A DNA stretch of 64,000 nucleotides from Podarcis vaucheri (taxonomy: Eukaryota): assembly GCA_965113315.1 (NCBI GenBank), contig OZ220363.1; one strand, 5' to 3'. The translations under genes were made by a program, and so were the position numbers. Below the pieces are notes generated by a model. The model worked only from the letters and a program-made list of their open reading frames with translations, had not been told where the DNA came from and ran no database searches. This document shows, piece by piece, positions 2,448-63,711 of the stretch. Every line of letters starts with the position of its first letter. The stretch's first letter is position 1.

Positions 2448-4199
2448 GCAAGATAGTTTATTTTTCTAAACTAGCACTGCTTGTCTTAGACAGTTTGACT
2501 TGCAAGCCTTCAGGCTGGTATGTGCCATAGCCATCATACTGACTTAATTCTAGTGATTAGAGAAGTTGTCCAGAAACATTCCCCCCCACACAAAGGAGCT
2601 GAAGAGGAGAGGTGGCAGATGAAGAACTGAAATATGGATACTTCATTATCACTGCAATTACCAGAACCCAAGGGGAAGAAAAATCATTAGAGCTATAAGA
2701 GGAAAGCTCATGTTAGCTGCAGTTCCTTGCTTTTAATGAATTGCATTTTATATATTTATTTTGCCAAATAAAAAAGAAAATTAGCAAAATGTCATCCTGC
2801 CAGAGTGTAATACTTTGAAGGGGTAGTTTCAATGCCAAGTTACTGCACAAATTTAAATGTTTAGTATCTAAACATTGGTTCTTGGGAGTCCTCATTTTCC
2901 TCTAGGCGGAAGTGTAGTAGCAAAAAAAGGAATGGAATATCCTTTTCTTCCCTGATAACAGTGCATCTTCTTTTCATAATTGACCGCTGTTGTGACAGTT
3001 AGGAAGTTTGCATCACCCTTTGCAAACACTGTTGAACAACGGATATCTATCAGTTTATGAACTGTCTTGTTAGCAAGGAAATACTCATTTATTTGAATAT
3101 CCACATCACTTTTGAAGTTCACCTGCCTTTTGAAGTTCACCAACGATGCCTTTTGATCTACTCAGATGTGTACTATCCTTCACTGATAGACCAGATTTAT
3201 AACCATAAAAGACAGTTAGTAGGTTACTGTATTTCTGGAAAACGTAATTAACAGATTGCCTTGGTGTAGGGTGGCTGCATTTAATTCAATCTTTGACGAG
3301 AACAAACATCAGCAACCTATTAAGGAACCCTTTAGTGACTCTTCTGCTATTTCCCTGCCTACTTTGGCCCACAGTGCTTCAGGAAGGACTGGCTTGTTTG
3401 TCTTTCTTAAGCAGTCCAGAGAAGCTCCAAAAAGTAATAATGGGAACATTCATAATTGAAGACACGTGAGATATCTTCACTTACGCTCTTTGCTGATAAA
3501 GCCAGATGCTGGAAAACAAGATGTCTATGGGCTAACAAACTACTTTCACTCCATTTTTTCCTTTGCTCTCTTGAATGTATATTGTGAAACACTTTTCTTA
3601 CTATGGACTTCAGAATGTGTTGCACAGCATTGACATCTTGACCCTAATGTCACTTTATTTCCTGTTTCATAGTGATGGAGGGTTTCTATCCTGGAGGTAA
3701 TCATAGTTAAAACATTTGCTTTTATTTTTATTTTTCCATCCTGGATTAGATGCTGTTCTTGTGTTTGACACTGTGCTTCCGTTTAACTTCCAAACGGTAT
3801 TGTTCATTTCTGTACAATGGGCCGGAAATCAACAATGCACAAAACACTTCCTTAAAAACAAACAATGTCTCCTTCACATGGGTTTATGCAAAGAAAACAT
3901 TTAACAGAAAGGTGTACACACATATATATTACACAGCATAAGGCTTACTAGAACTACCGCAGGTTCCCAGAATGGAAAAGGCTGTGTTTCCGATTCCACC
4001 TAGTGACTAGCCAGACTATTACATTTCATCTATTTATAGACAACTTAATTTTCAGAATTTCTGCACCTTGCCCATAAACGTGTTTTAAAAATAATAATAC
4101 AGGAAACAAGAATGATAAAAATTTGTCTCCCGAATAAGCCAGCCTTAAGCCATGCCTGGCGTGCTCTGGTCCATGGGGTCATGAAGACTAAACGACTAA

Positions 4200-4460
4200 A
4201 CAACAACAAAGCCATGCGAGTTCTGTTGGCTTGTTGACATCCCTCGCCAGCACAGCATTCCTGCACACACGCGCTCTCCCCAGGCTGCGTCCTAGGGGAT
4301 CGAACCCGCGATCCAAGGACGGGCAGAAAGGCAGGCAGGCAAGCACTGCCCCAAAGAGATCCACAAGGCGGTAGGGGAAACTGCGCATGCTCCTTCTGAT
4401 AATCGCTTTTCGCGTCATCGGCCACTGTGTGGCGAGCGTCGCTCGCGAGGTACGGAGAGC
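4200..4460. promoter_or_regulatory. Upstream CpG cluster: possible alternative MAP3K2 promoter/first exon or divergent promoter
   Basis: CpG-rich; NRF1-like TGCGCATGC (4382-4390); CTCGCGAG palindrome (4442-4449); donor-like GAG|gtacgg at 4449/4450. Confidence 0.5.
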
Positions 4461-5179
4461 TCTGGATTGTGCACCACAGAGATAAGAATAGTAGAGAAGG
4501 CCATCATTATATCGAGACGGAGAATTTCAGGGTTCGCACAAGAGTGTGTGGGGTCAGAAGCGAGCGCTGCCCATAGAAATCAGTGGAGAAACAGGATTTT
4601 GTAGGAGGTGAAGCTGAAGTGAGAAGCAGGGCTGACTTTCCACTCAAGGCCGCCTAATGCAAAACACCCTTCAGCTCAATCTTATTCATTTGCCTCCTCA
4701 AATCAACCTGTCAGGCCAGCTCCAATATGCAGTCGCATGCAAAAGCATTATGTTTTTAAAACTCTAATTACTAAAATAAATATATTTAACAATATACACA
4801 AGAAATCGGGACGTGAACAAGATAGAGTATGAAGTTCTGACTTTTCTACCTTGTTTGAGGAGAGCTCTAACTATATTAAAATTGTGGCTTTCTCCATTGT
4901 TAGAAGGAGAAAACATTTACAATTAACCCGGAAATTTCTTCGTAGCAAAATCCAGTTTTACAAATATACGATTCAGATCAATTTTAGAATGGAAATGCCA
5001 GTTAATTTCTTTGGATCCTGCAACTTGCAGACTTGTGAGTCCCAATCAAGGAAGTTCTGCTTCTGTACTGTATAAGAGTTGCGTTTATCCTCAGTTGGTA
5101 GTTCTCTGACACAAAGCATATTTATTTCGGCGCTGGATTTATTTTATTTTATTTTTTTACATCTTAGAATCCCCAAGAC

Positions 5180-6200
5180 CTCCAGCGCTGTCGCTCTGCA
5201 CTCAGAGGAGATAATAGATGCCGGGTTTCCTTTTTATTTTTTCCCCCCGACAGGCAGTTGGACGCTATGGGAAGACGGGGTGGGTGTCCTCAGACGTCAC
5301 CGGAACTACAACTCCCATGATCCCTCATTATTGGCTACGCTGTCATGGGGCTTGCTGGGAGTTGTAGTCCTACGACTTCACCGGGTTATAAAAGCTATCC
5401 TTTTGGGAGACTCTTTCTCCGAGCGCGCTTCTTCAGGCCACTCGCGAGCCCCTTTCCGAATAAAGTCTCCGTAGGGGGACGCGGCTCTTTCCCTCCTTCG
5501 TGCCATTTATTTATTTATTTAGGCGCGACGTGCGTCGTGACGTTACGACGTTCCCGTCTTGTGTGTGTACGGGAGTCACGGGCTCCTGCGTGGGGGGAGG
5601 CGGAGCCTGAGGAGATCTTGAGGAGGAAAAAGAACAGGGGTTGCTTGTGAGGGGTGGGGGTGGGGGAAAGGTCTGCTCGAATAGGAGACGGGCACCGGGT
5701 TGGGGTGGTGGGGGCTCCTTGCGCGCTTCTTTCCCTTCCCCCTCCGGCCCCCGGGTAGCGCAGGGGAGAGTGAAGGGGGGCCGCTGCCTCATTGGCCACT
5801 TCCACCTCCCCCCCCCGGCTCTTTCTGTGGGTCTGTCCCCCTACCCCCGCATCGACGTGCTGCTTGCCCCCTCCCTGCGGAGGGGGTGTTGCTGGGCCTG
5901 CTGTCCCCCCCCCGCGCTCCTCACTGGTACCCGGTGAGGGGTGAGAGTGGGTCTGACCTCAGCTGAAAGCCAGGATCCTGGACCCCTCCGGTGTTCGAGG
6001 CCTGGAGCTGCCGGCTTCTGGGGGGGAGGAAACCCTCCGCCTCCCCCCCCCCACTTCCTCGTCTCTGCCCCACAGGTAGGTAGTGTGCACGCGCGCGCGT
6101 TCATGTCGCCTGCTCTGGTGTCTGAGGAGATGGGGGAAAGGAGGCTCTTGCTCTTGGTGTAGGAGACCCCACCCCCCTTTGGAGCTCATAGCCATGCATG
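5180..6200 (+). promoter_or_regulatory. MAP3K2: MAP3K2 CpG-island promoter and non-coding first exon region
   Basis: High GC and CpG; CRE-like GACGTCA (5293-5299); inverted ACTACAACTCCCA pair (5305-5317, 5356-5368); ATTGG (5330-5334); CTCGCGAG (5441-5448). Exon 1 boundaries not determined. Confidence 0.75.
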
Positions 6201-8867
6201 TAACCTATATTTATTATATATGATATATTATCTTTATTTCTAGTGGGTCACTTTTCCTGGTTGCGGTTGTAATTGGGAAAAGCCAAGTACCGAAAGTCTC
6301 TGGGGATTCGGGGTTTGGGAGGACCCTTGAGTTGTCATTGAGGAAGAAAGGGGAGGAGTAAATTGTGGTTTCTTTCTATGCCATCCTGCGTGTGTGTCTA
6401 CTCAAATGTAAGTCCCGCTATCAAGAGTGTGGCTGGGATTTTGGCATGTGTGTGTGTCTTTGGAAAGGAGGTGAGGTTTGTGAGTTCTCTAAACCATAAG
6501 GCTTGGTGTAAGCATACTTATTTGGGAATAAGTCACACTGTGTGTACATTTATCTGAGAATGGAAAAAAGGTTTTTGTATAGCGTCTTTTTGCTCTGCTA
6601 CCACACGTGCAAAGACACATTTCCAGCAGAGGAATCTGGTTTCAACTGCAGAGATGAGGTATGGAGAGAGAGGAAATAAGCAAGAATCCACAAGATACTT
6701 GCAAAAGAGCATCAGGTAAGAAGTAGGCCACAGTTTAACACTGTGGTTCAAAAAACAGGATGTCAGCACAGATTAGGCTTGATGTTAAAATGAGATATTG
6801 ATTTACTAGAAGTATAAAACGGGGTTTTAATCCTGATTTGGGATTTTATGGAGGAGTTGGTGCAGTTTTGGTGGCCATGTTGGCTAGTGACAATTTTCAG
6901 TGTCTAGTTGTGGAGTGTAGTTAGAGGTTATGGTCAAGTTGAGTGACTTCTACTGTCAAGGAATATTGGGTGAATGTGCTGTTTTTTATGTGTTGCGGCT
7001 TGTAACTTGTACTACCCTATTAATGTCATTTTACTTGAGTTCTTGATGTTGTGAATTTATGAGAATTGCCTATCAGGTATTTTCAAGAGGGAAAGTGAAC
7101 AAAGAGCTCCTTTTGCCCTGAGTTGTGAAGTGTGGAAATACATGCAAGGAATTTATCTAGCTTCCGTTCTTACTTTGCAAACAAATTCTTCAGGGTTTGC
7201 CACAACATTGTTGGTTAGAAGATCAAAGCTGAAAGATGCTGACCACAACTTAGTGATATTTGTGTTTCATGCTTATTTTCTGTTGAATGGCTAAAAAGGC
7301 TAGTGGAAGTTCACTTTTGGAATAATGAATTTTCATAGAATACTGTATCTGTGCTCTCTCCACTCACAAATCCCCCTGGAATTCCCCCACATTAACCCTT
7401 TTCATTCCCACTCTACGCAACTGTTAAGCTCACTTTTCATTTTCCCAACCTCATTTCAGAAGCCACCTCTCCTATTCTGCAACCTTGCTTTGAATGCCTG
7501 TTTTCACCTTCATCCCCATATCCATGCCTCCCTCTCTCTTTTTGTGCAACCCCTGCACACAGACCACCCCCATAGTAACCTCCTGTATCTTCCTCCTCCA
7601 AATACATTGCATCCACTAACCATCCTTTTCACCTTCCATCCAGTTATGACGAAGCCATCATCCCCTCCTGGGGGAGCCTTTTATTCCTCTGCTTTCATCT
7701 TCATCCCAACTCCCATGCCTCCCACTCCCTCCTTCTTTGCAACTTCCTCTGCACCCATTTTCAACTTCACCCCTTTTTCTTACCTCCTCCTTCCTATTTT
7801 TTTCTAACTCTGCCTTGCACACAGACCACCCACCAATTCCATGCCTTCTCTTCTCTCCTATTCTGTAGCCTCTTTTGCACATATACCCCATGCTGATATG
7901 CTACTACATTTTTAAGAGGAATAGAATTTTAAGAGGAAGTATGCTAGTTAGCTTGTGTTGATGGATGTTGTACATATATGGGTGTTTGCTTGTTAATAAA
8001 ATATATCTTCAATTACTACATTGAATCTGTAACTCCATGGGACCAGAAATACATGGGACCAGACAACACATGAGAACAGAAATGCATTCTGTGAAGGTAC
8101 TATTGAATATCTGAGGGCTCCACATTTTTATCTCTTTCACATGAGGCAGACCTGAGGGAGATGCTTAAAACAACCAATTTTCCCCTTTCAGTTTTCTCCC
8201 CTTTTTCCTGTACTCAAACAATGGCAGAAGCTTCAGTAAAGCAGGGATGTAAGAACACTGAGGGTTGTTGTTGTTGTCTAAACCAATTTTAACAAGGAGA
8301 AATACAAGAGGTGGGTACAACACATAAGCTAATACCAAAAAGCTAACACAACAGAGCCTTCCCTGACTCTTTTCTCACTCTACTCAAACTCTATTTTCAA
8401 CTGCCACTCCCCCCTTCAGTGCTGCAAATTTGTGACTATCAGTTGTATATTTTAATTTAGGAACAAAATTCAGTTTCATGATCATAATAAGCTGAAAGAT
8501 GTTGCTGTCAGGGCAGAAGCATATAGGATAAACAACTTAGCAATGTTTTTTGGGGGGAGGAAAAATAGTATTTTGATTCTTGCAATTCCTTGCCATGTTA
8601 ACTTTACAATATTAAAACATTACAAAAAGGGTTGTCATTCAGACTATTTTCAGCCCAAGTAAATGCTGATGCAGACTTCCTCTAGAAACTGTAAAATTGT
8701 GAAATGATTTAATTATCACCTTGGTAGAAAATGACACTTATAAAATAACTCACAGAACACATTTAACTTGATGCCAAAAAGCAAAGAAGTGGTTAGCAAT
8801 GTAGATGTAAAGTTTTTTGATGTAAAAAAAAGAGAGGTCTGTATAGCCAGAACCATTAAACCATTTA

Positions 8868-14404: not shown

Positions 14405-31193
<16,789 letters not shown>

Positions 31194-37673: not shown

Positions 37674-38246
37674 TATATTAATTACAATAGTGGACAAGTG
37701 ATGCAGGACCAGCAAGATCAGTCTTTGAAATGTAGAAAATGGCAAATTCCCAGTTGTTACAAGTTACTTGTTCGTCTGCAGAAATTTCAGATTTAACTAC
37801 CTAGTTTCCACCACCCCCGCCAGCCAAGTTCTATACAAATACTCAGAATGCAGCCAATGTTAAGCTTGTTGAACAAACACTTAACTCTCGCCACTGGAAA
37901 TCAATAGCACTTAATTTGGTTTGACAGTGTCCTTTATTCTTAAGCTAAGTGGGAAGTAGGAAGTTCTACCACCACATTGTTCTTGTTTTTTTAAAAAATA
38001 ACCCAGGCTTTGACTCTTGCACTCTGTTCCAGAATGCATTTTTAATGCTGCAGCTGCCCTAATGTCCAGTAGTTCAGTGAGCTGCTAACAGCTGCCCTAT
38101 ATAGTCTATGATGGTACTTATTCTGAAGGAAGGTGTTAAATAGGACCTCTGGAAGATCACAGGTTCCCAGCCCTTGGCTTAAAGCATGTGACAGTATTGC
38201 TTTTGTATAGACAAATCAGATGCCGTTTCAAAGAACACATTTTCTT

Positions 38247-46596: not shown

Positions 46597-63711
<17,115 letters not shown>

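Follow-up and report, generated by a model that had tools for sequence, protein, structure and literature searches.

Transposon-borne binding sites for ZNF143 have already been proposed in mammals, where MLT1J would have carried SBS2 sites into promoters (PMC3627581). At mammalian SBS2 sites, whose motif is 25 bp long, ZNF143 and THAP11-HCF1 compete, and in human cells ZNF143 ChIP scores are higher where more SBS2 motifs are present (PMC3627581). The motif is held by 95% of ZNF143 peaks, mostly at active promoters, and the ZFP143 motifs carried by mouse B2 SINEs are unbound (PMC11687419). Among hAT elements, the non-autonomous hAT-N1_AC of Anolis carolinensis is 135 bp long, with an 8-bp duplication and a 57-bp inverted repeat (PMC3014272), and MITE domestication has been described in Xenopus (PMC12676858). 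A literature search with partial coverage of subscription journals gave no report of a squamate MITE with ZNF143/THAP11 sites or of ZNF143 at MAP3K2. The lizard MITE pair described here adds to the mammalian proposal, as a possible exaptation.

We analyzed a window of 64,000 nucleotides from Podarcis vaucheri contig OZ220363.1 (assembly GCA_965113315.1), in which a 64-bp module, ACTACAACTCCCA..TGGGAGTTGTAGT at 5305-5368, holds two ZNF143/THAP11 motifs in opposite orientations. Like MLT1J, it appears to come from a transposable element with a 25-bp ZNF143/THAP11 site; MLT1J, however, is an LTR retroelement with ChIP-backed binding, whereas the lizard element is a DNA MITE with an inverted pair, known from sequence alone (PMC3627581). 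It resembles hAT-N16_XT and the other MITEs of Xenopus liver enhancers in that all are non-mammalian hAT MITEs bearing factor motifs, but the Xenopus cases are distal, tissue-specific, and chromatin-backed, and ZNF143 and THAP are nowhere named in the body of that paper (PMC12676858).

A known relative is hAT-N1_AC, which has in common with the lizard family the length of 135 bp, the 8-bp duplication, and the inverted repeat (PMC3014272). One lizard copy (L032) opens with exactly its published first 20 bases, two others (L035 and L112) do so with a single substitution, and its 57-bp arm would take in the ACTACA..TCCCA motif at the lizard position; the relation is known from these printed 20 bases, the core lying outside the comparison (PMC3014272). 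This match to an Anolis repeat also points to a lizard as the host. The promoter copy differs in being nearest to an older subfamily with a CAGGGGTGGG start and an ATTGG spacer, and host motifs are not mentioned in the portion of PMC3014272 that describes hAT-N1_AC. With the native M4, Ronin-binding, and SBS2 motifs the module shares a CpG-island, housekeeping-type promoter and the motif itself, both arms fitting ACTAYRNNNCCCR and the right arm fitting CTGGGARWTGTAGTY (PMC5006282, PMC10329844). Native sites in the lizard genome differ by having neither the MITE spacer nor its flanks, and their pair spacing is variable.

Gene setting and motifs of the module

The gene 3' of the module contains PB1 and kinase exons, and its last exon matches MAP3K2 alone among solved structures (E 4.5e-42), in agreement with the first-pass annotation, which had placed the module upstream of MAP3K2 and inside a CpG island. 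The island extends approximately from 5201 to 6100, as judged by composition, with a CpG o/e of 0.87 to 1.05 across 5201-5800. Next after MAP3K2 is a helicase gene, which we take to be ERCC3/XPB. In an RNA-like contig of a close relative, which spans 5575-6073, exon 1 runs from 5575 and is joined via 71 other letters to an exon at 14720. Because the contig reaches 5575, the non-coding exon 1 (5575..6075, plus strand) begins at or before this position, which is a lower bound for its 5' end; raw-read depth is about 1 over 5273-5763. The module is 207 to 270 bp 5' of this 5'-most base, or less than 500 bp from the start on its upstream side when the related organism's contig is used as a proxy for it. 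The earlier wording "core promoter" is too strong for a module at least 207 bp 5' of the contig. Published motif positions center at about −70 to −81 bp, and the typical native site is closer to the start than the module, at −207 to −270 from the lower-bound start.

Several native promoter-type words lie closer to exon 1, namely, CTCGCGAG at 5441 (with TCGCGA at 5442), TGACGT at 5538, and a G-rich box at about 5593. We presume that the words in 5441-5606 are BANP-, CRE-, and Sp-like.

The module sequence was found at 5305-5368 as claimed. In its left SBS2-type motif (5305..5329, plus strand), the 13-bp core (5305-5317) does not differ from the family majority, and agreement with the published Ronin motif is 14/15. 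The right, inverted motif (5344..5368, minus strand; core 5356-5368) matches the Ronin motif CTGGGARWTGTAGTY at 15/15 positions over 5355-5369. Both 13-bp cores are perfect, and against the SBS1 consensus the arms score 15/18 and 16/18. The motifs had been described as 13-mers; they are present, but the full SBS2 motif is 25 bp, so that the two motifs take up 50 of the 64 bp and leave 14 bp of free spacer (5330..5343, plus strand), at the center of the MITE fold-back. The right motif has shifted toward the native form, reading CCCAGCAAGC compared with CCCAGCATGC in native sites and CCCATCAGCC in the family.

The hAT MITE family and the origin of the module

The exact paired-arm pattern occurs at 4,287 places in the genome, with none in the control. 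The arms span 62 bp in 44 of the 50 places listed, compared with 64 bp at the promoter, and none of these 50 has CCAAT in the spacer, as judged by eye. Paired motifs at spans other than 62 bp occur at 678 places, and the 50 listed are mostly indel variants of the MITE; among those examined (15 first-listed and 10 hand-picked), 1 of the 10 hand-picked pairs had no MITE match. Five near-identical loci with common flanks, at or near contig ends (L062, L063, L065, L066, and L068), suggest a multicopy subtelomeric block.

The family consists of short, non-coding, high-copy elements of 135 to 139 bp with CAG..CTG ends and YARNG-type terminal inverted repeats, and its 8-bp target-site duplication matched at 7 to 8 of 8 positions in 12 of the 28 loci tested and was also seen in two window copies. 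Terminal inverted repeats starting with YARNG are among the defining features of hAT MITEs (PMC3014272). The family majority sequence forms a near-complete fold-back (−64.6 kcal/mol) in which both of the long inverted arms carry a motif, and the inverted pair is a by-product of this fold-back. To obtain unselected copies, we took sixty evenly spaced 10-kb stretches, which yielded 53 copies at ≥18 bits; by extrapolation from these 53, the genome has about 1.4e5 copies (1.05-1.83e5), or about 88 per Mb. In the right arm, 21 of the 53 copies have the motif base and 21 have G instead.

The first-pass annotation had proposed that the family carries a ready-made inverted ZNF143 plus NF-Y cassette. 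Among the 37 unselected copies spanning both arms, both motifs are kept in 5, and the full cassette, with CCAAT, in 1. At the promoter itself, ATTGG at 5330-5334 (CCAAT on the minus strand) is in a non-consensus context. This context has drifted from the GGCCAATGG of the family to AGCCAATAA, which does not fit the NF-Y consensus RRCCAATSR, and consensus matches in 4201-6100 number zero. With CCAAT present in 14 of the 53 unselected copies, the NF-Y part of the proposal is weak, and the CCAAT of the module is probably a passenger.

Three copies in the window, at 18074, 50503, and 52571, had been cited as sharing the core, and none has an intact cassette. The full-length copy at 18037..18172 (minus strand, 8-bp duplication GGCTAGAA) has a broken right arm and a spacer without CCAAT; the full-length copy of another subfamily at 50474..50601 (plus strand, duplication 7 of 8) has both arms broken; and the copy at 52531..52608 (plus strand), the 5' half of a member of the older ATTGG-bearing subfamily, has a broken arm. 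More decayed copies are found at 1400-1490, 38123-38175, 50366-50446, and 62958-63031.

Alignments of the module with the window copies gave E values of 2e-4 to 0.03. We built an independent profile seeded by the 52531 copy, not by the promoter, from 29 aligned matches, of which 25 were kept after removal of 4 near-duplicates. Against this profile the promoter scored 45.6 bits (E 1.5e-13) over 5292-5381, which bears out the claimed whole-length likeness to the family, spacer included. The matching stretch (5292..5381, plus strand) corresponds to columns 28-114 of about 136; it is the middle portion of a hAT MITE in a decayed state, its terminal repeats and target-site duplication past recognition. 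The word GGGGTGGG at 5277-5284 fits the MITE left end only by allowing three gaps, and the best target-site duplication at the promoter copy, 6 of 8 among many registers of the 1,800 tried, was not above chance. To judge from its sequence, the promoter copy is a decayed fragment and not an intact element. Its origin from the MITE family appears highly probable, and the transposon-derived motif pair at this promoter is real and well supported. A subfamily with the promoter's GTCAC flank was considered and rejected, having only 6 matches in the genome, with unrelated spacers.

Directly 3' of the relic is a candidate TATA-like word, TATAAAAG (5387..5394, plus strand). It occupies the expected course of the MITE right arm, from whose family sequence it is separated mostly by transitions, and it may derive from the relic or be due to chance.

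Mammalian counterparts

In the mouse, Ronin gives a weak peak at the Map3k2 promoter, and the one motif called in it, a 15-mer, is non-canonical (q 0.32; PMC10329844 Tables S1B and S1D). Mouse Map3k2 is nonetheless expressed, and its level is unchanged on Ronin loss (log2 change 0.17, p 0.36) (PMC10329844). MAP3K2 does not appear in the ZNF143 peak tables for human and mouse (PMC3627581; 9 of the 10 files covered), which do list NUP153, ATP5J2, IWS1, and other MAP3K genes; the look-up of the human MAP3K2 island among the peaks used presumed coordinates. For the orthologous promoter in mammals, these published tables give a mouse peak with a weak, non-canonical motif only, and the module appears to be absent from the mouse promoter. 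It is not an amniote-wide element, and the mouse and human tables fit a lineage-specific insertion. In a search of sequencing runs, DNA matches came from two close organisms only, and no RNA match was listed.

Function of the promoter copy

In our preferred reading, to which we give a probability of about 0.5, a MITE core sits in the MAP3K2 island and its motifs likely bind ZNF143/THAP11, adding a modest lineage-specific input beside native elements. Whether the module makes a real contribution to transcription seems evenly balanced. An ancient insertion would have placed a MITE copy in or next to the CpG island, most likely at its upstream edge, where the copy would have stayed unmethylated and lost its ends. 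The two SBS2 sites would then have opened to ZNF143, which is activating, and to THAP11-HCF1, in competition, and this input would add to that of the native elements closer to exon 1. The reading is favored by homology beyond the motifs, arms that agree with the family majority at every position, a right motif nearer the native form, four CpGs, and a mouse promoter without a canonical motif. It is weakened by the ascertainment of the locus, the arm-keeping copies elsewhere, the lack of an island excess, the distal position, the unbound B2 motifs, and the unchanged mouse Map3k2.

The alternative that comes closest is a neutral relic, a MITE copy whose presence at the island's upstream edge was simply tolerated, with arms intact by chance and any binding without effect on MAP3K2 output; we consider it a serious contender, not far short of even. 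At a density of about 88 per Mb, selection is not needed to account for promoter-proximal copies; if 15,000 to 20,000 promoters are assumed, chance would place a copy within 500 bp of several hundred of them. Overall, the MITE family keeps its arms better than any other part, and both arms survive in 5/37 unselected copies and in 3/23 equally diverged ones. The mouse gene needs no such module, and the native promoter-type motifs closer to exon 1 (TCGCGA at 5442 and TGACGT at 5538) also suit a dispensable relic.

Set against this is the contrast between the arms (100%) and all flanks (53%) in identity to the family majority, which none of the 37 unselected copies equaled (1/37 when the near flanks alone were taken), the flanks being more decayed than in nearly all of these copies, at a locus that had been picked for its arms. 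The right motif, moreover, has moved toward the native form, and real ZNF143 binding is usually seen at perfect motifs in unmethylated islands. For "co-opted," the term used by the first-pass annotation, position and this one ascertained contrast between intact arms and decayed flanks make a possible case.

The first-pass annotation had also suggested that the family seeds such sites at promoters genome-wide. Some island copies with an intact arm do exist, but no enrichment in islands was seen. Strict islands held 0 of the 53 unselected copies (2.6 expected from 5.0% of the sample) and loose islands held 3 (5.2 expected from 9.7%), in a sample that is 0.04% of the genome and with a mask that also picks up CpG-rich young repeats. 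CCGG precedes the motif at 140 sites, and of the 100 that we examined, 92 were MITE copies, 9 of them with CpG-rich flanks. The second arm was intact in 2 of these 9 island copies (1 of 8 without the MAP3K2 locus), compared with 19 of the 83 elsewhere. The lack of island enrichment and of preferential arm retention favors the neutral relic. Among the best relatives of the module, 29 were examined, and 1 of them is in an island.

A second island MITE core, at L179:1505-1566 (G000:C1:8038007-8038068), has both arms perfect, a CpG-rich spacer, and decayed flanks. The host gene belongs to the TOMM20 family (MAS20 domain, E 3.7e-11), and the core is in its intron 1, about 100 bp from the intron start, with a young full-length MITE copy about 70 bp beyond the core. 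The site draws attention because nuclear genes for mitochondrial proteins are targets of ZNF143 (PMC11687419). Seven further MITE copies (L244, L246, L251, L257, L259, L262, and L271) have one intact motif and CpG-rich flanks.

A bolder reading, which we hold to be doubtful, is that hAT-N1-like MITEs keep a ZNF143/THAP11 site in each arm since these host factors serve the element, and that island copies such as those of MAP3K2 and L179 are selected squamate-specific inputs, a reptile counterpart of MLT1J that rewires housekeeping promoters. In this reading THAP11, itself transposase-derived, would loop DNA between opposed motifs.

The locus offers a testable case in which a reptile DNA transposon supplies a promoter with the motif that is most conserved among vertebrate housekeeping promoters, and which the mouse counterpart of this promoter lacks. 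If binding and selection are true, the MLT1J idea would be widened to squamates and to MITEs; if not, the about 4,300 perfect inverted pairs are a warning that, being transposon cores, they would swamp ZNF143/THAP11 motif scans of lizard genomes with repeats.

CpG sites of the module

Four CpGs in the core of the promoter copy fall at positions where the family has TG or CA, compared with 0 to 3 in the 53 unselected copies, as the first-pass annotation had described. It had read them as protected ancestral CpGs, which was not borne out. At such sites the family is almost all TG or all CA (e.g., 33 TG and 0 CA), and because it is near-uniform at each site, the pattern is unlike that of copies each losing an ancestral CpG on their own. 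In the context test, the result was borderline, with 6/21 against 1/20 (p 0.053) and a p value of 0.13 with the arms left out. Other island copies show a like but non-significant gain of CpG (28/90 versus 14/60 sites, p 0.20, six copies). The CpGs suggest an unmethylated setting more than a protected ancestral state. Copies with the same spacer CpG gave 19 matches, and none of the 18 others is in an island.

The same data bear on capture, in which the promoter sequence would be older and an ancestral hAT would have taken it up and spread it as the MITE core. CpG at the promoter where the family has fixed TG or CA looks as if master copies had decayed from a CpG-bearing source (context p 0.05 to 0.13), and Anolis hobo derivatives are reported to take in genomic DNA (PMC3014272). 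The homologous stretch, however, belongs to the long inverted arms of the element (a 57-bp repeat in hAT-N1_AC), the module is missing in the mouse, and the CpG gain in the other island copies shows that it can follow from the setting. We therefore regard capture as improbable.

The CRE-like word GACGTCA, said to arise from these CpG changes, is present at 5293..5299 (plus strand), inside the MITE left flank. It is a half-CRE (AGACGTCA), and it also occurs in a non-island MITE copy (L231).

Homology outside the motifs

We repeated the comparison with both 25-mers hidden, so that only the left and right flanks and a 12-bp spacer counted, using a scoring matrix derived from the 53 unselected copies. 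The masked module scored 16.6 bits in the matching orientation and 0.5 in the opposite one. This score was reached at none of 14,240 real CpG-island positions and at 2 of 29,890 random ones, and all 15 native island motifs (10 from 30 loci and 5 from 100 loci) scored −11.2 or less. The spacer alone gave a p value of about 1e-4, and each flank gave 0.02 to 0.04. The likeness is not confined to the motifs, and the earlier claim that the flanks also match was upheld.

Convergence, that is, a native inverted ZNF143/THAP11 pair that resembles the MITE merely through the common motif, can draw on the native inverted pairs without MITE homology that exist in this genome (L076, span 73, and L093, span 75), on the 25-bp motifs making up most of the module, and on the loss of any terminal repeat or duplication at the promoter copy, but it was rejected as very improbable because the orientation-specific masked score stands out from all native and island positions, alongside the profile match (E 1.5e-13), and the native pairs differ in spacing and have no MITE homology.

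Other features upstream of the module

A single-copy CpG-rich patch (o/e about 0.85) lies at 4200-4620, 700 bp 5' of the module. It contains GCGCATGC at 4383 and TCGCGA at 4443, and close to 4296 is a word resembling a tRNA B box. The patch has zero raw RNA reads and no tRNA gene, and a tRNA scan of 3800-6500 found no tRNA; it is possibly an upstream or antisense promoter element. Farther upstream, on the same strand, positions 314-481 encode an exon of a short-chain reductase (adh_short_C2), presumably PECR-like.
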